From: a virus
Taxonomy: Duplodnaviria > Heunggongvirae > Uroviricota > Caudoviricetes
Direction: 5' to 3' (one strand)
IMG/VR virus record: IMGVR_UViG_2585427735_000009
Length of the DNA: 54,182 nucleotides
Shown here: positions 14,160 through 54,182 of the stretch, piece after piece
Position numbering within the stretch: the first letter of the stretch is position 1
Layout of the letters: each line of letters begins with the position of its first letter
Made by a program: the position numbers and the translations under genes
The notes under the pieces: model-generated
Told to the model about the DNA's origin: nothing
Databases searched by the model: none
What the model saw: only the letters and a program-made list of their open reading frames with translations

Positions 14160-14633
14160 TTACGGCGTTTCTGTGGCCTTTTTAAAGCGTTTTCTGATTT
14201 CGTCCATGATCTCCTGTTCTGCCACCTGATCAAAGCCCATATACGGACGTGCGCCAATGGCCGCCGGTCCCGGTGGCATACCAGGCAGGCCCCCCCACTG
14301 ATGAATGGCTGCATAAGGTTCATTTGATCCAATCAGCGCCCAGGTATCGCCATAATCCGTGGTCAGGCGGCGGGCCAGATCGCCGTTCAGCGTCAGGATT
14401 TTGCCGGGCGTGTATCCCTTACGGGTACGCCACTCACGGTAAGGATCTGACCAGTCATGCCAGCGTTCACCATCCGGCTCTTTTTCCTGCTCAAATGCCA
14501 TTTCTGACGATGACAGAAGACTCTCCGCCACACTGCGTGCCAGGTCTTTTCCGCTTCCCACAAACTGAAGCCGGGCAAAGACCCGCTGGAGACGCGCAAC
14601 GTCCACCACGACCGCCGCATCAATGGATGACAT
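14160..14633 (-). CDS. Virion morphogenesis protein (Mu G-like)
   Basis: 157-aa ORF; translation closely resembles Mu G family. Confidence 0.78.
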   Translation of the reverse strand: MSSIDAAVVVDVARLQRVFARLQFVGSGKDLARSVAESLLSSSEMAFEQEKEPDGERWHDWSDPYREWRTRKGYTPGKILTLNGDLARRLTTDYGDTWALIGSNEPYAAIHQWGGLPGMPPGPAAIGARPYMGFDQVAEQEIMDEIRKRFKKATETP

Positions 14634-14754
14634 ATTGCCTCCGCATAAAAGATGAATATAAAATAAACAGGCGGTCAGTGTACGCTTAACTGGTAAAGTC
14701 GGTGCCTGCCTCCGGGTGGATCATGTATGCGGGTTCGACCCCCGCCACTGACCG

Positions 14755-16086
14755 TTAATCAATTTGTCCTTCCAGCACCTCAAGCATTCCGCCCCGGATA
14801 TCCGATTTCAGCTTATCCATATTGATAACCCGGTAAGCATTCACAATCACATCCAGTTTGTCGGGCTGACGTTTCAGACTGTACGGTGCATTAACGGCAA
14901 TCTGCACACTGCCATCCTTATTTTCCACGATATACATCAGATTGTTGTGCCGTTTGTCCCACAGCACCGCTTTTGGCTTTGCCAGCATTGCCGGTAAGCG
15001 CCCGAAGTCCTCTGGCATCAGGGCGATGCCGTCATTCTGATGTTTCACACTGTCTGCATGGAGCACATTTTTACCGCTCATCGCCAGCAGGCGGGCCGGT
15101 GGCGTTCCCGTCCGGCTTTCCACTGCCTGCGCAATGCTTTCAGTCATAAAGCCCAGCGTGCGGATATCGTTACCACCTCGCCGGGTCTGCATGATGTTTT
15201 TTGCCCAGATGCGGAACGCCAGCTGCCGCTCCGGGCTGTTGTTCATCTCCTGAACCACCATTTCCCGTAACGCCGGGCTTTTCACCTCGATCAGTTTGCG
15301 GATCAGCGCCTGGTCTGTGCCGAACGCTGCCGAGCCGGGGTTATATGACCAGCCCACATCCGGTGTCATGGTTCTGGTGCCATCTGAATATGTGGTCACC
15401 GGCATTTCTCTGACTTCTCCGGTCTGTTTATCCACGCCAGCCTCAACATTGCGGGTGGAGAGATGATCCTCACCGGATGAAACGGATAACCCCATTGCAT
15501 CCAGACGGGCCTGAGACAATGGCCGCACACGGCAGCGACAGTTCCAGCCATTGGGCGGGTAGTGAGTATTCCAGAACGGATCATCATAGCGGAATACCAG
15601 CCCGTTAAGGGCGGAATGTGCCGGGCGGGTGCGGCTGTCCATCACCGCCACATACTGCCAGAACGGATGCGTGTCCGTGTTGTTCATCATCTGCGTGTAA
15701 CGCCCGGCATTGTAAGCCACACGGGTGTTCACGTTGTAAATCAGCGCCAGACGGCGGGGGCTGCCAAGCTGCACTTCTTCCGCGTTCCCTGCACTGTCCA
15801 CCACAATCTGCTTTCCCCACCATCCCAGCTTTTGCAGGCGGGGGGTCAGCGTGCGGATAAATGTTTTCTGTGAAATGCCCTCATCAACAGCACGCTGCAC
15901 TTCCGCCTGTAGTGTGGTCAGTACGTCCAGGCGTGCCACTTTTGCCGCCGTGAATGAACGGGCATGAACATCCGCGTCTGTTTCGAACCAGTTCCAGCTG
16001 ATATGCTCCCCTTTGGCGCGGAAGTATGCCACCGCCTCTTTTGAGGGAAGCGTGGCGGCATAACCTAAATCAATCCCCTGTGTCAT
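14755..16086 (-). CDS. Head morphogenesis protein (Mu F-like)
   Basis: 443-aa ORF directly after portal gene with 17-nt overlap; Mu F-like family. Confidence 0.82.
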   Translation of the reverse strand: MTQGIDLGYAATLPSKEAVAYFRAKGEHISWNWFETDADVHARSFTAAKVARLDVLTTLQAEVQRAVDEGISQKTFIRTLTPRLQKLGWWGKQIVVDSAGNAEEVQLGSPRRLALIYNVNTRVAYNAGRYTQMMNNTDTHPFWQYVAVMDSRTRPAHSALNGLVFRYDDPFWNTHYPPNGWNCRCRVRPLSQARLDAMGLSVSSGEDHLSTRNVEAGVDKQTGEVREMPVTTYSDGTRTMTPDVGWSYNPGSAAFGTDQALIRKLIEVKSPALREMVVQEMNNSPERQLAFRIWAKNIMQTRRGGNDIRTLGFMTESIAQAVESRTGTPPARLLAMSGKNVLHADSVKHQNDGIALMPEDFGRLPAMLAKPKAVLWDKRHNNLMYIVENKDGSVQIAVNAPYSLKRQPDKLDVIVNAYRVINMDKLKSDIRGGMLEVLEGQID

Positions 16087-26261: not shown

Positions 26262-26804
26262 TTATTCCTCCGTCAGCGCCACATATTCAGAATGTTTAAT
26301 TTCCTGGCATTCTTCAGGAATACATCCGTTTATTTCCCTGCCATAAGCGCCCACTTTAAACACCACGCACAGGGCATCACGGGAGAACGAAGGGGTCCAC
26401 CAGGAGTCCGTGTTAAACATGGAGGGGATTCTCATTACCCCCAGCTTTTCACAGAGCCAGACAAGGAAATCAGGACGCTTTCTTAACTCGCGTTCAGCGG
26501 CTTCAATCATTGCGGCAATCGCCGGTCCTTCAGGGCATGACTCATCAGGTCTGGCTATAAAGCACTGTCCGCCACCGATAAAAGCCACATCATCGCGCTT
26601 ACGCCAGCCCGCAGGCAGAGCACCGGCAAAATAAAACTCACTGATTCTGTCCATGGCGAACGGCTTTAAGCGCAATCCGGCAGCGCCTGTATTTTTCAGT
26701 AATGTCCGAAGAATACTGTTGCGTAGCGGTAAAACAGCCTGTTGATATTTGGTGAAATATTTATTTGTCTGCACACGGTCTAATTTGAAATAAAAATATG
26801 CCAT
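26262..26804 (-). CDS. Hypothetical early-region protein
   Basis: 180-aa ORF downstream of gam. Confidence 0.45.
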   Translation of the reverse strand: MAYFYFKLDRVQTNKYFTKYQQAVLPLRNSILRTLLKNTGAAGLRLKPFAMDRISEFYFAGALPAGWRKRDDVAFIGGGQCFIARPDESCPEGPAIAAMIEAAERELRKRPDFLVWLCEKLGVMRIPSMFNTDSWWTPSFSRDALCVVFKVGAYGREINGCIPEECQEIKHSEYVALTEE

Positions 26805-26901
26805 ATTTCCGATTCCTTATTTTCAGCTTTCAGGCGCAAGCAGTCCCCTGACGCGAGCGCCATAATTAAAATGAAGTGATATTTAAATAATTAATGCGGT
26901 G

Positions 26902-27432
26902 TTATTTATTCAGTCCGGCATCCTGTTCAAAAGGCTCGACATAAAAACTTTCAGCGCCTTTATTCACCTTTATACCGGCAATGCCTTTCACCGCATCCGG
27001 CTCCGCCAGGACGGCTTCCTTGTTCACTTCCTCTTTCGTGCGGATGAATCGCTCAAGCCCCATACGGCGCAGCGTGTCAATCACACCTTCCACATCACGG
27101 CTGACGCTGCATGATGGCGTTCCCAGCCGCCATGACACCGTTCCGGTGGTCAGATTGGCAGTTTTGGTTTTGCCGCCGTTCGTCAGCTCATCACGGTTGG
27201 TTTTACACCAGTCCTGAATCCCTTTAAAAAGCACTTTGATTTGCTTTTTAAGATTTTCAATCTGCGGCGTATAACGGGCGGTGATTTCTGCCACTTCATC
27301 ATTCATCGCCGTTTCCAGGCGCAGCGCCTCTCGCTGAATATCGCCCAGGGTGCGGATATCGCGGCTGACTTCTTCGCGGGTCTGCGGTGCGGCCTCGGCT
27401 ACAGCCTTTAATTTTGTAACGCGTTTTGCCAT
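26902..27432 (-). CDS. gam: Host-nuclease inhibitor protein Gam (Mu Gam-like)
   Basis: 176 aa; strong similarity to Mu Gam as recalled (..DIQREALRLETAMND.., WCKTNRDELTNGGKTKTANLTTGTVSWR, FIRTKEEVNKEA, PFEQDAG). Confidence 0.85.
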   Translation of the reverse strand: MAKRVTKLKAVAEAAPQTREEVSRDIRTLGDIQREALRLETAMNDEVAEITARYTPQIENLKKQIKVLFKGIQDWCKTNRDELTNGGKTKTANLTTGTVSWRLGTPSCSVSRDVEGVIDTLRRMGLERFIRTKEEVNKEAVLAEPDAVKGIAGIKVNKGAESFYVEPFEQDAGLNK

Positions 27433-45282: not shown

Positions 45283-46008
45283 ATGGAGACCGTTTTTGAC
45301 GCACTGAAAGCAATGGGAAAAGCCTCTTCCCAGGAAGTGGCAGCACGTCTGGGAATGACCCGGGATGAGGCGATTAACGAGCTGTGGAAACTGAAGCGTC
45401 GTGGGGAAGCTGATAACAAGGGCCCGATGTGGTGGTTGACTCAAACCGACGAAAACGCATCTGTAGCACAGGCTTCTAAAGTGACAGCGCAAATGCTGAT
45501 CGAGGCGATTGAACAGCATGGCCCTAAAGCGGCTGATGAACTTGCACTGATATTCAGAATTACTTCCCGCAGGGTGAACTCATCGCTGGCTATGGCCATC
45601 AGCAAAGGTCGTCTGATTCGCGTAAATCAGAACGGTAAATTTCGTTACTGCCTGCCGGACGGTAATTTACCAGCAGAGCCGAAAGTTGTATCGGTAGTGA
45701 AAACACCTGGTAAAGGCTTTCCTCAGCCAGCCGGTGTTGCGTTACCAGTACAGGAAGCGGCAACACAGGAAGAAATTAAAACAGATACTGTGGGGGACAT
45801 TGTGCAGTCACTACCATCGTTCACTGAAACGCGAGCCAATGACCTGATTATACCATCGCTGCAAATGGCAAACCGCGAACTGCGCCGGGCGAAAAGTTAT
45901 GTCCAGAAGTGGGAGCGAGTCTGCGCCGCGCTGCGTGAGCTGAACAAGCACCAGGATATTGTCCGTCAGATTGTCGATTCCTCCAGTCGTATTGTGTCGG
46001 AAAAGTGA
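45283..46008 (+). CDS. Hypothetical winged-helix protein (YdaW position)
   Basis: ATG at 45283 with GGGAGGAAA RBS (METVFDALKAMGKASSQEVAARLGMTRDEAINELWKLKRRG...). Confidence 0.45.
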   Translation: METVFDALKAMGKASSQEVAARLGMTRDEAINELWKLKRRGEADNKGPMWWLTQTDENASVAQASKVTAQMLIEAIEQHGPKAADELALIFRITSRRVNSSLAMAISKGRLIRVNQNGKFRYCLPDGNLPAEPKVVSVVKTPGKGFPQPAGVALPVQEAATQEEIKTDTVGDIVQSLPSFTETRANDLIIPSLQMANRELRRAKSYVQKWERVCAALRELNKHQDIVRQIVDSSSRIVSEK

Positions 46009-46024
46009 TTCCTGGGGAGGGCTT

Positions 46025-46447
46025 ATGGCAAAAGTATTTACACAGGAAGAGCGAGAAAAAATTAAAGGGCAGATTGTTGATCTTGTACGCCAGAGCGGGC
46101 GAGAGACGTTACGACAACTGGAAGCTAAAACGGGGGCGACAAGATATCTGATAAGCGCTCTTGCTAGGGAGTTGGTTGCGAATGGTGATGTATACAACTC
46201 TGGCTATGGGTTATTTCCGTCTGAGCAGGCACGTCAAGACTGGCAAAACGCCCGCAAAAAACTATCGAGGGCAAAGGTGAAGAAACCAGTTGTGGTTGAT
46301 CTGGACCTTATTTGGTCATTACCAGACGGAGAAATACGTCGCTACGACAGGCGTCTGAACATAATTTGCCGTGAGTGCCGGAAGAGTGAAGTTATGCAGC
46401 GTGTATTAGCATTCTATCAGGGAAATGTTCGGTATTTATTGAAGTGA
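46025..46447 (+). CDS. Hypothetical protein with N-terminal wHTH-like region
   Basis: ATG at 46025 with GGGGAGGG RBS (MAKVFTQEEREKIKGQIVDLVRQSGRETLRQLEAKTGATRYL...). Confidence 0.45.
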   Translation: MAKVFTQEEREKIKGQIVDLVRQSGRETLRQLEAKTGATRYLISALARELVANGDVYNSGYGLFPSEQARQDWQNARKKLSRAKVKKPVVVDLDLIWSLPDGEIRRYDRRLNIICRECRKSEVMQRVLAFYQGNVRYLLK

Positions 46448-46656
46448 CGAGATTAAAGACCATTAATTCATATGTGAATTGACAGTTTCATGGCACAGGA
46501 TACGGCTAGCGTGGTTGTCTGTTTTGTGCCAGGGGCGGGCCTAACTAAGTTCACACAACATTGATTATTGAAGATTAGGTCAGAAATAAATAGGTTATTT
46601 TGATAATTTAGTTACGTTAGAATGCCGCAGTGTACAAAGTAAAAATGAGGAATAAT

Positions 46657-48018
46657 ATGACTCGGAGTGAAATAAACGTCTGGGATAAGAGACGAGGCAC
46701 CAATAGTCATCGTGTGGAGGAGATTCGATCTGAAGCTCAGCACGACCTTTCTCGACTGATTCACTCGTCTGCTTTCAGACGATTGCAATCCAAAACACAG
46801 GTTCTTGGTCTGGGTGAAAGTGATTTCTACCGCACACGACTGACTCATTCTATGGAAGTCGCACAAATCGGTTCAGGTCTTCTTGCTAAGCTGAAAATAA
46901 AATATAAAGGTAAAGAGCAAGAGCAATTTTTACCAGATAACGATCTTATGCAGGCAGTATGTCTCGCACATGATATTGGACATCCTCCATTTGGTCACGG
47001 CGGTGAGGTAGCTCTTAACTACTGTATGCAGGATTACGGTGGTTTTGAAGGAAACGGTCAGACACTTCGCATTCTCTCGAAACTAGATAAGTATACCGTT
47101 GAACACGGACTCGATCCTACACGCAGACTTCTGCTAGGCATACTGAAATATCCGGTTAAATACTCGGATCTAGTGGTTACAAAAGACAGAATCCCGGCCA
47201 CTATCGGATCGCCGAACTGGCTCTTTAAGTCATCTGATTTTAAACCTCCAAAATGCTATCTAGATTCAGAATGCGATGTTGTAGAATTTGCTCTTTCACC
47301 ATTTACTGAACAGGATCGGAGGCTTTTTACTTCCGTTGAAGATGGTCAAACTAAATCCGATCATAAAAAAGCTTCTTATAAAGCTCTCGATACAACCATC
47401 ATGGATCTTGCCGATGAAATTTCGTATTCGCTGCACGATTTGGAGGATGCTATTTCTCTCGGAATGGTGACACGAGAAATGTGGATGGAGCATTTCAGTG
47501 AATATGAAACCCTATTTACTAACTGCCATGGAGAAACATTTTCCGCAACATGTGAATCTGTCGCGGATAGCCTTTTTGGTGAAAGTTACAAGAGAAAAGA
47601 GTGCATCGGGATGCTGGTTCACCTGATGATTACAAGCGTTGAGCTTATTACAAAGAATCCAGCATTCGAATGTGGCATGCTCAAATATAATGCGGTCCTT
47701 CCGGAAGCGGTCGAAGCACTACGGTTTAAAATTTTCAAACTGGTCAAAAATAAAGTAATTAAGCATGAAAATGTACAGCAGCTTGAATTCAAGGGACAAA
47801 AGTTGATTGTTGAGCTTTTCGGTGTGCTGGCTAACGATCCGTGTCGGTTTCTACCGGCATCAACGAGGGAAATTTACGAGCGGCAGACTAGCTTGGACGA
47901 GAAGGCTGGTATGCGAGTCATTTGCGACTATGTTTCAGGGATGACTGATGACTATGCAACAAAGCTTTATGAGAAGATCCTTATTCCACGCAAAGGGTCT
48001 ATTTTTGACCATCTCTAA
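46657..48018 (+). CDS. dGTP triphosphohydrolase (Dgt-family HD-domain dGTPase); candidate anti-phage dNTP-depletion enzyme
   Basis: ATG at 46657 with GAGGA RBS; motifs AFRRLQSKTQV, RTRLTHSMEVAQIG, AHDIGHPPFGHGGE, LADEISYSLHDLEDA match Dgt HD-domain signatures as recalled; AT-rich relative to Rac core. Confidence 0.82.
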   Translation: MTRSEINVWDKRRGTNSHRVEEIRSEAQHDLSRLIHSSAFRRLQSKTQVLGLGESDFYRTRLTHSMEVAQIGSGLLAKLKIKYKGKEQEQFLPDNDLMQAVCLAHDIGHPPFGHGGEVALNYCMQDYGGFEGNGQTLRILSKLDKYTVEHGLDPTRRLLLGILKYPVKYSDLVVTKDRIPATIGSPNWLFKSSDFKPPKCYLDSECDVVEFALSPFTEQDRRLFTSVEDGQTKSDHKKASYKALDTTIMDLADEISYSLHDLEDAISLGMVTREMWMEHFSEYETLFTNCHGETFSATCESVADSLFGESYKRKECIGMLVHLMITSVELITKNPAFECGMLKYNAVLPEAVEALRFKIFKLVKNKVIKHENVQQLEFKGQKLIVELFGVLANDPCRFLPASTREIYERQTSLDEKAGMRVICDYVSGMTDDYATKLYEKILIPRKGSIFDHL

Positions 48019-48079
48019 TGCGGCAAGAATGATGCTCTGAGTTCAATTGACCTATAAACATTAACCAAGGCATCTACCA

Positions 48080-48099
48080 GGGGGATATCAAATCCCCCC
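48080..48099 (+). terminator. Hairpin GGGGGAT-ATCAA-ATCCCCC, candidate terminator after dGTPase gene
   Basis: 7-bp G/C-rich stem 62 nt after the dGTPase stop, followed by a weakly T-rich stretch (ATTCTGAATTTGTT). Confidence 0.4.
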
Positions 48100-48428
48100 A
48101 TTCTGAATTTGTTCGTGCAGAATCGGTGAACGTTCTCATCTGAGCGTTAAACGCCAATAATCGTTGATCTACATTGATCATTAATACACCTTAATACCAT
48201 TAGCGTCTTACTCCGTTATGAGAACAAACGCGAACTGACCTGCCCCCAGTATTAGTGACCTTCAGCTACGGTAACTTGTCCGCTTCGTGCCAGAAGCGGA
48301 CATCCATAGAGAAATAAGCGATCAGTTCTTAAATTTGTTGTGATTTTTTGATTTTTTTGTATTCGCAAAGGGATTTGTGTTGGTTGTATAATTACCTAAT
48401 ATTCATACAGTTGAATGGGAGATGTGGG

Positions 48429-49322
48429 ATGAAGTTCTCGTACAGACATGGTTTTGATCCTGAGTATAATAAAAAGCCGATACGGGAAGATGCTCCAGAG
48501 TGGCTTCGCTCTTTATTTTTTGTAACTGTCCTCGATAATTTTTTGTACATTGATGGTGATAGCCGCATTACGAATGATGAGAACAAGCCGTTGGGTATTA
48601 AGGCTTTGATCGAGCGACTTTGCGCAGAGAATGGTCAAGAAACAGATCATGAGGATTTCGATTCATGGTACTGCTATGATGCTTTGAAAGCGCGTTTGCA
48701 ACATATGCGTTGGTTTCAATTTTATGATGCTGTTGAGATTATCGGAGATCTATTAAGAAAAAGAGATGTAGAAAGAGGCCATACTTGGGGTAAGAAGGCA
48801 TTAGAAGACATTACTTTTACATCATATCGTCAGAAATTGAACGAGTTATTCGCATCTCGAAATATTGACTGGAAAATGAATTCTGCTGGTAGGTTAGAAA
48901 CACCACTACCAAATGAATTAGAACAAAAAATCGATGAAACTAACAACTTATTGCAAGACCAGTTTGAACCTGCAAGGAGGCACTATGTGAAAGCCCGGGC
49001 TTTTGCATTAGGTGCGCATAAGGATCCAGAAAATTCCATAAAAGAATCAATAAGTGCAATAGAAAGCATGTGTCGGACTTATTATCCTTCAGCCTCAACC
49101 TTGGGCGATGTATTAAAACTGATGAGAAAAGAAAACACTATCTCACCTATGCTTTTAACGGTGATAGAGAAATTTTACGCTTATACAAATGCAGAGCCAG
49201 CAGTAAGACATGGTAGCAACAAGGTTTCTTCTGTCTTGGAATACGATGCTGAATTCGTGTTGCATATATCAGCAGCATTTATTAGAACAATAATACAAAG
49301 AAAAGCTGTTTTGGATAACTAA
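48429..49322 (+). CDS. Hypothetical protein, possible Abi/HEPN-like abortive-infection candidate
   Basis: ATG at 48429 (MKFSYRHGFDPEYNKK...), about 297 aa, AT-rich; possible R-x6-H motif (RAFALGAH) in C-terminal half; upstream extended -10 TGTATAAT near 48386. Confidence 0.5.
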   Translation: MKFSYRHGFDPEYNKKPIREDAPEWLRSLFFVTVLDNFLYIDGDSRITNDENKPLGIKALIERLCAENGQETDHEDFDSWYCYDALKARLQHMRWFQFYDAVEIIGDLLRKRDVERGHTWGKKALEDITFTSYRQKLNELFASRNIDWKMNSAGRLETPLPNELEQKIDETNNLLQDQFEPARRHYVKARAFALGAHKDPENSIKESISAIESMCRTYYPSASTLGDVLKLMRKENTISPMLLTVIEKFYAYTNAEPAVRHGSNKVSSVLEYDAEFVLHISAAFIRTIIQRKAVLDN

Positions 49323-49562
49323 GTCAGACTTACAGCCAACTGACTGTCTCTTATTATTCAAAACATAATAATGTTAGGTCCGCTTATCGCACATCAGGGA
49401 CAACCATACTCAAATCTCCCACATTGCAGGAGATTTGAGTGTGAACACGTCACCGTGGAACAAAGACTGTATCATCGGTCAAAAAAGACCTGGTTATCTA
49501 GCAAAAACTTTTAACATACCAACAAACTTAATTTATTTAAATGCTATTAATACAACTAATGT

Positions 49563-50789
49563 TTAAAATATATATTTTATATCAACCCAATTTTTAGCAT
49601 TATTGTCAACTAAAGTAACGCTATGTCCATGACTTGAATTTATAGCATCGATTACTGATTGTGATGGGTGTCCATGTGAATGACCATCCGACTGAGCTAT
49701 AAACAAAACATTATCAAAATCCGCAATTATTTTTTGATTGAAATTTAATTCCGAACCATGATGAGGTAATGTCATCACCCTTACCGTTTTAATCACTTTT
49801 GAATAGAATTCAGCCCATTTATTATAATACAATGATGTATTAAGCTTTGAGTCACCTGTTAATAAAACAGATCTAATTCCTTTATCTCTATCAAAGAGAA
49901 AATGTCGCTCAACCCGACTATTTCTAAAACTAAACCACTCACGAGAAGGCTCATTAACAATTTTCATCTCAGCTTCTTGATTATTAATAATCAAGAGATT
50001 GATTGATATTACATTATGATCGCCAGCAAGTTTTAAATAACACTCGCGTAATTTCTTTCTTTCCCCCGTGCTAGTTAATATTTTAAGCATTTTTTTCTTA
50101 CTTAACTCAGTAAAACCATTTTCTATTAACTGCTGACTGAAAATTTCAATTTTCTTACGTGAACGGGGCGGTATCCAAGAAATAAATGACATTAGTGTAT
50201 CAGTTTTGTTTTCCCCAATCCTTTTAACCAACCAACGGTTACATTCAACATCTCCTTTGGAGTCAGATATTTTCATTGGTAAGCTTACAGCGCTATCCTT
50301 AATGTTTTCACTATTAAATATAGGAGGGTCAAAATTATCATCAATATCACAGGGGTAAAGCAAAGATATATCTACCTCAGGCAACCTTGATTTTATCCAT
50401 TTGACAGGATCAATGAGAAATTCCATAAAAAGACCTGACGTAGAATTAGAGCATAGCTCCGATGCAATTAAGTAATAGCTATCATGGATATCTAGGTATG
50501 GTAATACAACCTTGCGTATTTTGTTATCTACAAGCTGACATAAATGGTCAAATCCATTTATATGGTCTGAATCCAAATGAGAGATGTATACCACATCAAT
50601 ATATTTCTCATCAATATTAAAGAGAGATTTAGCCACATCCATCTCCCTACGCAACGCATTTAATTGGTCACTTCCGCAGTCATACACATAACTGTAAAGC
50701 AAACTACCATCCCTTCCCCTCAGTCCGCCTAAACTAAATCCACCCTGGCCAACGGGAAACAATCTTTTATGAAATACTTCTCCGCTCAT
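49563..50789 (-). CDS. Standalone metallo-beta-lactamase-fold hydrolase (ComEC-type motifs), candidate nuclease
   Basis: 408 aa, ATG at 50789 with AAGGA RBS; MBL motifs HLDSDH (HxHxDH), LTGDSKL and LPHHGS; very AT-rich. Confidence 0.7.
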   Translation of the reverse strand: MSGEVFHKRLFPVGQGGFSLGGLRGRDGSLLYSYVYDCGSDQLNALRREMDVAKSLFNIDEKYIDVVYISHLDSDHINGFDHLCQLVDNKIRKVVLPYLDIHDSYYLIASELCSNSTSGLFMEFLIDPVKWIKSRLPEVDISLLYPCDIDDNFDPPIFNSENIKDSAVSLPMKISDSKGDVECNRWLVKRIGENKTDTLMSFISWIPPRSRKKIEIFSQQLIENGFTELSKKKMLKILTSTGERKKLRECYLKLAGDHNVISINLLIINNQEAEMKIVNEPSREWFSFRNSRVERHFLFDRDKGIRSVLLTGDSKLNTSLYYNKWAEFYSKVIKTVRVMTLPHHGSELNFNQKIIADFDNVLFIAQSDGHSHGHPSQSVIDAINSSHGHSVTLVDNNAKNWVDIKYIF

Positions 50790-51503
50790 ATATCCTTCTT
50801 ACACCCTAACGTGATCATAAAATTGTCTTAAAGTTAAGTTTAAAGCTAAAAAGTCACAGCTCATTCCAACTCGTGAGCAATAGGAATGTATATTCAATCA
50901 GTTAGAGGATCAACCCGATTTTCTCTAATGAGATTTCGCAACGCAGTACGAACAGCAGCTACTTCTGCCATCTCATTAACAACCACACTGGACTACAATC
51001 CCCTAAGTTCTACAGACTGTAACCATATCCTCTTCACAGAAATAATCTGATTAATGCTGAAGGTCATCTTTCTCGACGCGAATGTATGACATAACAACCT
51101 CAGTTAATTATCTTTCGATAGAAAAATACCTTCACAAAAGGTTTAAGCAACCCATCACAAGACAACACGCTAAGCTTGCCTTGTAAGCGTCCTGCTTAAC
51201 CGAACAGTTCGCTTTCAGAGGATCTCCGGAGAACAGCTCCGATGCCTTATAAGGCCAATGCTCGCTCCTCGCTCACTGCGGACCTAAGGTTTGGTCAGCT
51301 TGTTCGCACTCTGCCAAAAGCGGGAGTTACTCCCATTCGGTGTTAATCAATGTAGAGCAGATCAATCAACGACAAAGAAAATGAGAGGCATATCACTACT
51401 CATATGAAAATTATTGTAGTAAAGTGAGCCGTAAGTTCATCATTTATAAATCATATAGCATATATGTTATATCAATTTTAATTTAAATGGCAGAATAATT
51501 ACC

Positions 51504-52208
51504 ATGGAAAAAATTAAAACTCCTTGTCCATATTGTAAAGGTGAAAAAAATTGCCACATAATAGGCCATAAAAAAAGAGAATGGAGTGAGGATGATGGGG
51601 GCAACTATTTTTGGGCTGAAAGTGAATACAAATTATTAGAGTGTATGGGGTGCGACGGAATATTTACATATATTAAATCCCGTCACAGTGAAGATTACGA
51701 CATTGAAAGAGATGAGTCAGGCTATGATTGTATGGTATATAACTATCATATATCAACATATCCCACTCAAGAGCAAGAAGAGATTAGACCAACTTGGTTT
51801 GGTGAGACATTAAACAAAGATCGTCAGCTGTATGTAATAATGAACGAAATGTACATCGCATTTCAAAATAAATCATTCATTTTAGCGGCGATTGGACTTA
51901 GAACTATTTTTGACAGAACAGTTGAGGTTCTAAATATTCATCCAGGATATACATTAGGCCAGAAGGTTGACATTCTTAAAGAGGAAGGTTTTATTGGGGA
52001 AACAGAAAGGAGCCAACTTAAAATTGTAACCGAAGCTGGCAACTCAGCTGCACACAGGACATGGGCACCGAACGAAACTGAATTTAAATCGCTTTTGGTA
52101 ATTATAGAAAATTTTGTAATGCGAACAATACTAAAAAATGAGGATATATTTAAGATTACAGAAAAATTACCTGCGAAATATCCAAGACCTCCCAAAAAGC
52201 AAGAATAA
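51504..52208 (+). CDS. Zinc-ribbon protein with DUF4145/HEPN-like C-terminal domain (candidate Abi-type effector)
   Basis: 234 aa; N-terminal CPYC-x-CH ... CMGCDG zinc ribbon; C-terminal AAIGLRTIFDR...GETERSQLKIVTEAGNSAAH resembling the DUF4145 GNxxxH signature as recalled; AT-rich. Confidence 0.55.
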   Translation: MEKIKTPCPYCKGEKNCHIIGHKKREWSEDDGGNYFWAESEYKLLECMGCDGIFTYIKSRHSEDYDIERDESGYDCMVYNYHISTYPTQEQEEIRPTWFGETLNKDRQLYVIMNEMYIAFQNKSFILAAIGLRTIFDRTVEVLNIHPGYTLGQKVDILKEEGFIGETERSQLKIVTEAGNSAAHRTWAPNETEFKSLLVIIENFVMRTILKNEDIFKITEKLPAKYPRPPKKQE

Positions 52209-52704
52209 TGTACGTAAGTGTAAATAGAGCTAAGAGATTATATATTGACTCTGGTTATCTCTATTAGCACATGCTTTTTGTAATGCCTTAACTGATTATT
52301 TAAACTCCTGTCAGCTTTTCGCTCAAAGCGGACTAAAGTGTTGGCTTGTGACTGACTTAGCGCATTTAAGGAAGTGGTGGTGGTGACGGGGTGTTGTGTC
52401 CCATTTCCACAGAATAAATCAGAGAAACTATAGCGGCTGTAATGGCAATCTATGGTCTTGCTATTGCTCTTATGGATCACCTTTCTGATTGATTTCATAT
52501 TGGCGAGGTAACGGGAGTTAAGTAGAATAGCTGCGGGTGCTTGAGGCTGTCTGCCTCGGGCATGAACACCAAAGGCAGATAGAGAAAAGCCCCAGTTAAC
52601 ATTACGCGTCCGGCAAGACGCTTAACATTAATCTGAGGCCACATCTATGCTTTGCATACGTAGATTAGCCTCTTACCGACCAAAAGGTCAAGGAGAAGCA
52701 GGCT

Positions 52705-52860
52705 ATGAAGCAGCAAAAGGCGATGTTAATCACCCTGATCGTCATCTGTTTAACCGTTATAGTGACGGTACTGGTAACGAGGAAAGACCTCTGCGAGGTA
52801 CGAATCCGAACCGACCAGACGGAGGTCGCTGTCTTCACAGCTTACGAACTTGGGGAGTAA
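52705..52860 (+). CDS. hokD: Hok-family membrane toxin (HokD/RelF-like)
   Basis: Hand translation MKQQKAMLITLIVICLTVIVTVLVTRKDLCEVRIRTDQTEVAVFTAYELGE (51 aa); below ORF-track cutoff. Confidence 0.8.
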   Translation: MKQQKAMLITLIVICLTVIVTVLVTRKDLCEVRIRTDQTEVAVFTAYELGE

Positions 52861-52882
52861 GAGGACCAGCGGGGAGAAATCC

Positions 52883-52905
52883 CATAAGCGCTAACTTAAG
52901 GGTTG
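52883..52905. repeat. IS186 terminal inverted repeat
   Basis: CATAAGCGCTAACTTAAGGGTTG, matching the IS186 terminal repeat as recalled, preceded by G-rich target-like sequence GGGGAGAAATCC. Confidence 0.6.
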
Positions 52906-53053
52906 AACCATCTGAAGAATGCGACGCCTCGGTGCCTCGTTAAGACGATGCCTCGCGTTCTTCAATTGCGTTTTGTAGGCTGTCAGGGATACTGTCCCAC
53001 GAATGGCCACCTGTAAGCTCCAGATGACCATTTTTGTTATTCTCCACAACGAG

Positions 53054-54166
53054 TTAGTTCTTCTTTTCGGATCCGGCACTTCTGGGGGGGAAATCCAGCG
53101 ATGGCTGGATTATGTCGTCAATTAAAAATGCGGCGAGTAGATTAGCAAATATCCACGCTTTCGCGAGTTCAGGTTCCTTTGCACGCAAAGCATCCAGGTG
53201 CAGCAAACTTTTGAGCCGCTTAAAAGCCAGTTCAATTTGCCATCGCAGACGGTAACAATCAGCCACTTGCTCTGCTGAATATTCATCTTCCGGTAATGAT
53301 GTTAGCAATAGCACATGGCCCGCTGCTTCCAGCGTTTCCGCCTGAACTACTCGTCCTTTTCGACGATTCTCGCTGAGCAGTCGGGTTTTACTGATTAATG
53401 CTTTTTCGGGAGGAAGTGATACGGCAATGAGACGTGCCGGAAAGGGAGCTCCGGCTTTTTTATTACCTGAATTGCCTATCATTACAGTGGTTTCACCGTT
53501 CTTACCGCAATCCAGCCCGCGCAGAAAACCCATCATGTCAAAGCGCATTCCTTCTGCAGTTAACCAGCGCAATCCTCGCCAGTGAACCCGGACGATATAA
53601 TCAGCTTCTCCAAAAGCAAGTGAGCGGATACATTCGGGACGCGAACCGAATCCCCGGTCAGCAATGCGTATCTCGTCTGCCGTTTGCGCAAATCGGTCCA
53701 GCCGTTCAGCGTCTCTGCTGTCGGTTAGCTCAAAATCAGTGAACTGACAGGTATGAGGATCATATCCCATATGTAGTCGCCATTCAGCGCTGCCGCCCCC
53801 GGGCGCACTGATTGCTGTTCCATCGACAAGACGCAATCTCTTTCCGCTTGTACAACCCGTAACTGCGGCGCGTACAGCAAGTGTTTGTGCGGCAAGTATG
53901 CCAAACCAGTCGGCGGCATTCCGCAGCCGCTTCAGGAGAGCCACGTCAGATAATGTTGCAACGTCATGGAGCTGAGCCCATGCAGTGACTTCACGTAATG
54001 ACATCCCCCCGGGGCCGTAAGCCAGCCCCAGACGTAGCAGAGTTGCAGCATCACGAATTTCGCGGCGGCGGGTTAGAGCCCCGGCATTACGTGCCGAAGT
54101 ATCCAGTTCTTCGGGCTTACCAATATGGGCCAGAATTGCTGACCAGTTATCGTGAGAGTAATTCAT
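53054..54166 (-). CDS. IS186 transposase (IS4 family, DDE)
   Basis: ATG at 54166 (MNYSHDNWSAILAHIGKPEELDTSARNAG...), 370 aa. Confidence 0.85.
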   Translation of the reverse strand: MNYSHDNWSAILAHIGKPEELDTSARNAGALTRRREIRDAATLLRLGLAYGPGGMSLREVTAWAQLHDVATLSDVALLKRLRNAADWFGILAAQTLAVRAAVTGCTSGKRLRLVDGTAISAPGGGSAEWRLHMGYDPHTCQFTDFELTDSRDAERLDRFAQTADEIRIADRGFGSRPECIRSLAFGEADYIVRVHWRGLRWLTAEGMRFDMMGFLRGLDCGKNGETTVMIGNSGNKKAGAPFPARLIAVSLPPEKALISKTRLLSENRRKGRVVQAETLEAAGHVLLLTSLPEDEYSAEQVADCYRLRWQIELAFKRLKSLLHLDALRAKEPELAKAWIFANLLAAFLIDDIIQPSLDFPPRSAGSEKKN

Positions 54167-54182
54167 CGGCACGTTAAATCAT

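Follow-up and report, generated by a model that had tools for sequence, protein, structure and literature searches.

The locus considered here lies towards the end of a viral DNA stretch of 54,182 nucleotides (IMG/VR record IMGVR_UViG_2585427735_000009; Caudoviricetes), called the window below, and it consists of a hok/mok/sok toxin-antitoxin locus followed almost at once by the insertion sequence (IS) IS186. The toxin gene, hok, is an intact gene of the HokD type at positions 52705-52860 of the plus strand and encodes a protein of 51 residues, MKQQKAMLITLIVICLTVIVTVLVTRKDLCEVRIRTDQTEVAVFTAYELGE. The Pfam profile HOK_GEF (PF01848) matched this product over its full length, 1-42, with 74.4 bits (cut-off 22) and an E-value of 5.3e-21; the NCBIfam Hok models matched it only below their cut-offs. 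Forty-six of the 51 residues are identical to HokD of E. coli K-12, and a protein identical to that of the window is annotated as "Hok/Gef family protein" (WP_021554378.1). A first-pass annotation had proposed a 51-residue Hok-family toxin at this place, and the profile search and the identity with HokD agree with it, the small reading frame being Hok-like. The gene is preceded by a Shine-Dalgarno sequence, AAGGAG (52690-52695, plus strand), in an invariant block of our alignment of related loci (alignment A1), and it ends with the stop codon TAA at 52858-52860. The codon for Tyr47 stands in a UACG context (52843-52846, plus strand), recognised by its sequence context only. At UACG, A-to-I editing by TadA, which changes Tyr to Cys, has been reported for the hokB, hokC, hokD and hokE mRNAs (10.1101/2025.08.07.668861). 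IS186 begins 37 nt downstream of this context.

Upstream of the toxin gene, the Rfam family RF01794 ("sok") matched with 105.2 bits (gathering score 59) and an E-value of 3.8e-24, covering model positions 1-157 of 157. The match lies on the sense strand and stops at the hok AUG; it therefore marks the complete leader of the hok mRNA, from the tac element to the AUG (52535-52710, plus strand). Its first position, 52535, was taken as the 5′ end of the mRNA and the beginning of tac, GGGUGCUUGAGG (52535-52546, plus strand); about 40 loci share the conserved motif GGGTGCTTGAGG, found here at 52535, and have it at -143 to -170 relative to the hok ATG. Seven nt upstream of this conserved end there is a predicted hok promoter (52500-52528, plus strand), found by consensus match only, with a -35 box TTGGCG at 52500-52505, a spacer of 17 nt and a -10 box TAGAAT at 52523-52528.

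On the minus strand, homology to sokC and RNA folding predict the antisense RNA Sok (52582-52655), with its 5′ end at about 52655 and a hairpin and U-run ending at about 52582. In alignment A1 the annotated ends of K-12 sokC fall on positions 52655 and 52579 of the window, also on the minus strand. The predicted fold has an unpaired 5′ tail, then a long hairpin and, at the end, the U-run UUUUCUCU, and its z-score of -5.0 compares with -4.9 for K-12 SokC. A minus-strand sok promoter, which had been suggested as a check on the locus, could be placed at 52662-52691 by reading the sequence and by homology with the start of K-12 sokC only (putative -35 box TTGACC, 52691-52686; 18-nt spacer; -10 box TAATCT, 52667-52662); the consensus promoter scan was silent on it, because the -10 box matches at only 3 of 6 positions.

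The insertion sequence occupies positions 52883-54182 in the minus orientation. The window contains the first 1300 of the 1339 bp of IS186 (IS421), and all 1300 are identical to IS186A of K-12. Its terminal repeat, CATAAGCGCTAACTTAAGGGTTG (23 bp, 52883-52905), begins 22 nt after the hok stop, in agreement with the first-pass annotation, which had put it at 52883, some 20 bp behind the gene. The transposase gene (53054-54166, minus strand; 370 aa) is convergent with hok; its product matched the Pfam family DDE_Tnp_1 with an E-value of 1.6e-26 and the NCBIfam IS4-family transposase model with 133 bits, and it is annotated as WP_001300563.1 in identical genomes. The window ends 39 bp short of the far end of the element, so that the far junction, and with it the displaced fold-back inhibition element (fbi) of the hok mRNA, lie outside; both were read in other genomes, whose identity with the window over this region is 99.9-100%. 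This degree of identity was found with E. coli Z1323PEC0011/13 and ET670. The full IS186 measures 1339 bp in ET670 and in strain PCP06101, and the second terminal repeat is present in the identical genomes.

Between hok and the element, the left half of a split hairpin, GCGGGGAGAAATCC, is found at 52869-52882 (plus strand), and its positions 52873-52882 are one copy of a 10-bp target duplication, GGAGAAATCC. The second copy directly follows the far end of the IS in ET670 and PCP06101; in ET670 the sequence after the far end is GGAGAAATCCCCGCAACCTCTGATG..., with fbi beyond it. Strain S40 carries the same prophage segment without the IS (99.9% identity over 10.9 kb), and there the sequence 3′ of the hok stop is GAGGACCAGCGGGGAGAAATCCCCGCAACCTCTGATGTATTATGCATCCTCAACGCAGCC... 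The empty site in S40 is an intact GC hairpin, GCGGGGAGAAATCCCCGC (GCGGGGA-GAAA-TCCCCGC), the same that is split by IS186 in the window. Its core, GGGGAGAAATCCCC, reads GGGG-AGAAAT-CCCC and matches exactly the preferred IS186 target that has been published, 5′-GGGG(N6/N7)CCCC (PMC6925257). The insertion is thus at a consensus target, with a duplication of 10 bp where about 10-12 bp are expected.

The insertion also extends the mok reading frame. From its ATG at 52647 this frame, which is -1 relative to hok, runs for 98 codons to 52943 (plus strand), 79 of them native and 19 read from IS186. Its ATG aligns in A1 with two mok starts, the annotated one of K-12 mokC and that of an R1-type plasmid locus, so the overlapping frame noticed in the first reading does stand in the position of mok. 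The same reading had mok running into the IS, and this was also seen by comparison: the IS-free mok has 82 aa and ends in ...GRNPRNL*, while the IS-bearing one goes from ...GRNP into 19 residues encoded by the element. In the allele shared by the window and S40 the usual mok stop (CC-TGA-GG, within the codons for ...EPEE*) has been changed to CTTGGG (...ELGE*), and the mok of the IS-free S40 form extends 40 nt beyond the hok stop; mok reads into IS186 only because the allele had already lost its usual stop. K-12 mokC (L004, 1452-1661) is annotated in the frame of hokC and with the same stop, as an N-terminal extension, whereas the mok of the window and that of the R1-type locus are in the -1 frame.

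The arrangement of the region 3′ of hok was compared among 49 related loci, one genome being taken per species. They share a common 3′ architecture, formed by the stop codon, a GC hairpin and, after a spacer of some 20 nt, a block such as CCTCAACGCACCC, often with a terminator hairpin. The block, fbi, is complementary to the 5′ end of the mRNA, tac, and in more than 30 loci the pairing amounted to -18 to -27 kcal/mol, as scored locus by locus with RNAduplex. In these relatives fbi begins 45-56 nt after the hok stop, without exception. Compensatory changes were found in three genera: in Kluyvera G12-C is replaced by A-U (GAGG/CCUC to GAGA/UCUC), in Photorhabdus U4-A by C-G (GGGUGC/GCACCC to GGGCGC/GCGCCC), and in one Citrobacter locus (L050) G11-C by A-U (GAGG to GAAG, with CUUC opposite). 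Such changes across genera support a tac-fbi pairing, and a helix of this kind belongs to the model of the hok/sok system of plasmid R1 (PMC9841398).

A contiguous fbi next to hok is the feature that the locus of the window does not have. The alignment with hokC/mokC/sokC, with the R1-type locus and with the IS-free relatives places the predicted promoter and Sok, tac, mok and hok upstream of the insertion and fbi downstream of it; since fbi lies beyond the insertion point, which is between it and the hok stop, the regulatory elements are not all intact upstream of the IS. In the first-pass annotation the 3′ region carrying fbi was said to be replaced by the IS. The separation from hok holds, but the element is neither replaced nor deleted: it is displaced by 1339 bp, and it survives beyond the IS in the identical genomes, 1.34 kb away.

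The RNA folds that we calculated follow the same division. A canonical HokD-type RNA of full length (L008) was predicted to be closed at its ends by 12 tac-fbi pairs (11.9 expected pairs), and the S40 RNA was still predicted closed, with 10.3 expected tac-fbi pairs. For the chimeric RNA of the IS-bearing locus (52535-53060), the minimum free energy (MFE) structure has nucleotides 1-8 paired locally with nucleotides 53-59, and no closure between 5′ and 3′ ends was predicted. The local partner of tac in this disrupted transcript would be a ucb-like stretch, AAGCCCC (52587-52593, plus strand), which appears in the MFE fold only. The hairpin behind hok is reduced from 7 to 4 pairs in the same fold.

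The end of IS186 itself has a stretch complementary to tac, CGCCUCGGUGCCUC (52925-52938, plus strand), beginning 65 nt after the stop, and if it supplied a substitute fbi the mRNA would be kept closed. The complementarity, over 14 nt, is worth -17.9 kcal/mol by RNAduplex, close to the -18.3 kcal/mol of the natural fbi of hokC, and the gef mRNA as reported for K-12 would include the equivalent of this stretch (PMC3562002). We consider this explanation highly improbable all the same. Windows of 60 nt taken as background reach an equal value in 2.4% of cases, G-U pairs make up 4 of the 12, the two segments have 0.0 expected pairs in the predicted ensemble, and the orientation of IS186 at such junctions is unbiased. 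The complementarity is probably due to chance.

Taking into account all these features, we read this as a type I toxin-antitoxin locus, hok/mok/sok of the HokD type, within the cargo region of an E. coli prophage of the Rac type, with IS186 in the hairpin behind hok and, in all likelihood, no pool of inert mRNA; we would put the probability of this reading at about 85%. No damage is seen in the toxin reading frame, the leader and the mok start, nor in the predicted Sok gene. The arrangement is an already known and very common one, and the disruption is the same as that of K-12 hokC::IS186, where the element just downstream of hokC (gef) is described as disrupting fbi (PMC3562002). In the course of events that we propose, IS186 would have transposed into the GC-rich hairpin behind the hok stop, with duplication of the 10-bp target, and would have pushed fbi and the former terminator 1.34 kb downstream. 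If the model of plasmid R1 applies, transcription would now continue into IS186, where the RNA would be antisense to the last part of the transposase gene; the closing tac-fbi helix would be impossible, and the 7-bp 3′ hairpin would be lost. The 5′ end of the mRNA would then fold locally into an "open" form, immediately accessible to Sok and to ribosomes; the counterpart of this local pairing in the R1 model is the processed mRNA. Without fbi in place, a stable reservoir of inert hok mRNA should not build up, so that post-segregational killing would be lost and the toxin gene would be either repressed by Sok or silent. The annotation that suits this locus is that of a HokD-type hok/mok/sok module in a Rac prophage with its 3′ control region separated by IS186, and not that of an intact toxin-antitoxin system.

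Two sets of points weigh against this reading. The first concerns its functional part, which is extrapolated from plasmid R1 and from K-12 gef, with MFE folds that are rough for an RNA of 526 nt. The transcript of K-12 gef/hokC::IS186 has been reported to end about 200 nt into the IS and to be still regulated by the antisense RNA (PMC3562002). As that allele is still transcribed and regulated, "inactivated" may be too strong a word for the present one. The first-pass annotation had seen here another chromosomal hok locus inactivated by an IS; the insertion point is indeed the one used in K-12 hokC and hokE, but inactivation may go further than the case of gef supports. It is conceivable that a working toxin-antitoxin pair remains, in which the mRNA is constitutively open and repressed by Sok, and Hok is made when Sok falls, as has been reported for gef/sof of K-12. 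The predicted promoter, the leader, the predicted Sok gene, the mok start, the ribosome-binding site and the hok frame are all intact, the gef allele that was found to be transcribed and sof-regulated has IS186 in the same position and orientation, and nearly all the Hok reading frames that have been tested were toxic (10.1101/2025.08.07.668861). We regard this as somewhat unlikely. The chimeric RNA keeps just a 4-bp remnant of the 7-bp 3′ hairpin and for this reason is expected to be short-lived, and translational coupling may be affected by the 19 extra residues of Mok and by reading through into the IS.

The second set concerns the state of the allele before the insertion. In S40 the fbi sequence is GCAGCC; all the other intact loci in which an fbi could be recognised have GC(A/G)CCC, and the change puts a G.G mismatch opposite tac, with a duplex of -17.4 instead of -21.5 kcal/mol. 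The terminator hairpin of S40 is degraded as well (CCTGATTGGCGGGTTTAC, compared with the canonical CCCGCTTCGGCGGGTTTTT). No terminator-like site was detected in S40 within about 300 nt downstream of hok, and the consensus scan of the chimeric region reported no terminator either. These changes, together with that of the mok stop (L002, 3431-3520), suggest that decay of the 3′ control region preceded IS186. The IS-free allele being already decayed on its 3′ side, IS186 may not be what silenced the locus, and it may have changed little. A functionally neutral insertion of IS186 into its preferred target, in a locus that was already decaying, has a real chance of being correct, although we think it rather less probable than not. 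In its favour are the mismatched fbi, the degraded terminator and the lost mok stop of S40, along with the report that IS-free chromosomal hok loci are inactive for post-segregational killing (10.1101/2025.08.07.668861). On the other side, the S40 RNA is still predicted to be closed, by about 10 of the 12 tac-fbi pairs; hok, the leader and the predicted Sok are intact, and one mismatch need not abolish function. Either IS186 or the earlier point mutations may have ended the activity of the locus. Natural pairs of IS-free and IS-bearing alleles, such as S40 and Z1323PEC0011, exist and would be convenient for studying the role of fbi in chromosomal hok loci.

The junction between hok and IS186 is by no means peculiar to the window. 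K-12 has two cases of it, hokC and hokE, in which IS186 occupies the homologous base of the corresponding hairpin. Of 5426 complete E. coli genomes, at least 819 gave a match with a coverage of 80% or more to a 206-nt probe spanning the junction of the window; the matches include mokC/hokC, chromosomal loci of the HokD type and others of this type on plasmids of some 95 kb. When the IS was inverted in a synthetic probe, 940 of the 5426 matched, so that no orientation bias that could be taken as a sign of selection was seen (819 and 940 genomes). Strain 2024CK-00188 is one example of the opposite orientation. About 21,000 places matched a probe dominated by the IS, and at least 1,800 records had a hok junction; a rough minimum estimate is therefore that about one IS186 copy in ten in E. 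coli adjoins hok, many of these copies being shared by descent. In PCP06101, which has the same 3′ allele, IS186 is inserted at the same base and with the same 10-bp duplication but in the opposite orientation, and must come from an independent event. The target GGGG-N6/7-CCCC was present in 29 of 40 distinct hok 3′ flanks, and the toxin reading frame was uninterrupted by IS186 in all the cases examined.

It has been suggested, from a survey of mobile elements that found hok/sok homologues near several insertion hot spots, that such disruptions are adaptive (10.1101/527788). Selection for insertions that neutralise a costly toxin, and not target preference alone, could account for the high frequency of hok-IS186 junctions. 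In our view this is improbable for the present site, with a target that matches the consensus exactly, two orientations that are about equally frequent and a toxin frame that was left whole in every case examined. With so exact a target match and no orientation bias, target preference is a sufficient explanation, and selection is not needed. The site behind hok is a target-driven hot spot of IS186, and a modest general point follows: the recurrent association of the two is explained by the match between the hairpin and the target consensus, and it occurs in both orientations and through independent hits on the same allele. One could go further and picture the GC hairpin behind hok as a dedicated landing pad for IS186, with hok loci, abundant as they are on plasmids and prophages, offering the IS safe harbours that are both harmless and mobile, each insertion turning an addiction module into a simple toxin gene repressed by Sok; we hold this to be quite doubtful. 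A still more speculative variant has the end of the IS (52925-52938), in the orientation of the window, partly substituting for fbi. As a separate observation, strain GD33 (H117) has a copy of IS186 beside a type I toxin gene of the Ibs family, where about 25 nt of flank resemble the hok hairpin region. This copy is a hint that the target of IS186 may be found at further small-toxin loci.

By comparison with known systems, the closest parallel is hokC (gef)/mokC/sokC::IS186A of K-12. IS186 is there at the homologous nucleotide of the same hairpin (GCGGGGAGTGATCC|CATAAGC...) and in the same orientation, with the transposase convergent on hok, an IS that is 100% identical and an intact leader and Sok, the latter predicted in the window. 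It differs in being a paralogue of the HokC type at another chromosomal site, outside a prophage, and in having a leader about 20 nt shorter. The element also occupies the same hairpin position in hokE/sokE::IS186B of K-12 (GCGGGGAGTAATCC|CATAAGC...), but its orientation is opposite and the toxin is more divergent. The closest toxin, with the 46 identical residues, is that of hokD (relF), which is borne by the Qin prophage of K-12 just upstream of DUF1367/Q-like late-regulation genes, and whose 3′ region has the hairpin, fbi and terminator and no IS. Unlike the locus of the window, K-12 hokD retains nothing 5′ of its ribosome-binding site, the homology beginning at position 52691 of the window. 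The window shows the reverse arrangement, with the 5′ half intact and the 3′ half disrupted. The hok/sok (parB) locus of plasmid R1 is alike in having tac at the 5′ end of the mRNA, mok in the -1 frame and Sok, predicted in the window, across the mok start (PMC9841398), and also in the GC hairpin after hok, the tac-complementary fbi and the terminator. Its sequence identity is distant, however, and the R1-type hairpin, GGCGGGCGCAGGCCCGCC, is without the GGGG-N6-CCCC target; the mok of R1 stops just before the hok stop, unlike that of the window. The function of R1 has been shown experimentally; that of the locus of the window is predicted from its sequence.

In the matching genomes the region belongs to a prophage of the Rac type, which is integrated at ttcA. 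Its genes begin with intR, xisR, ralR, recT, recE, racC, kilR, sieB, ydaT and ydaV, continue with an anti-phage dGTPase, an MBL-fold hydrolase, a DUF4145 protein, hok and IS186, and after the latter go on to the DUF1367/DUF1364/DUF1133 late-regulation genes, the lysis genes and trkG. The annotation gives intR a frameshift, which makes it probable that the prophage is defective. Directly upstream of hok (about 46000-52210 of the window) are the anti-phage dGTPase, a hypothetical protein, the MBL-fold hydrolase and the DUF4145 protein (51504-52208), the annotation of this part being taken by correspondence with L056, 8421-13972. With the dGTPase, MBL-fold and DUF4145 genes as neighbours, hok belongs to an island of defence or cargo genes that separates the replication module from the late-regulation one. 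The position of hok in Rac-type prophages is a point of cargo exchange as well as an IS hot spot. In PCP06101 (L058, 2380-3950), next to the same hok 3′ allele, genes for P-loop ATPases of the Sll1717 type replace the N-terminus of hok and the whole leader. The best-matching genome (L059) also has two copies of IS1A in its chromosomal part, near ycjY/pgrR and abgA/abgR, which would correspond to about 14300-15000 and 26600-27300 of the window, assuming that its positions 1-41999 are collinear with that genome.

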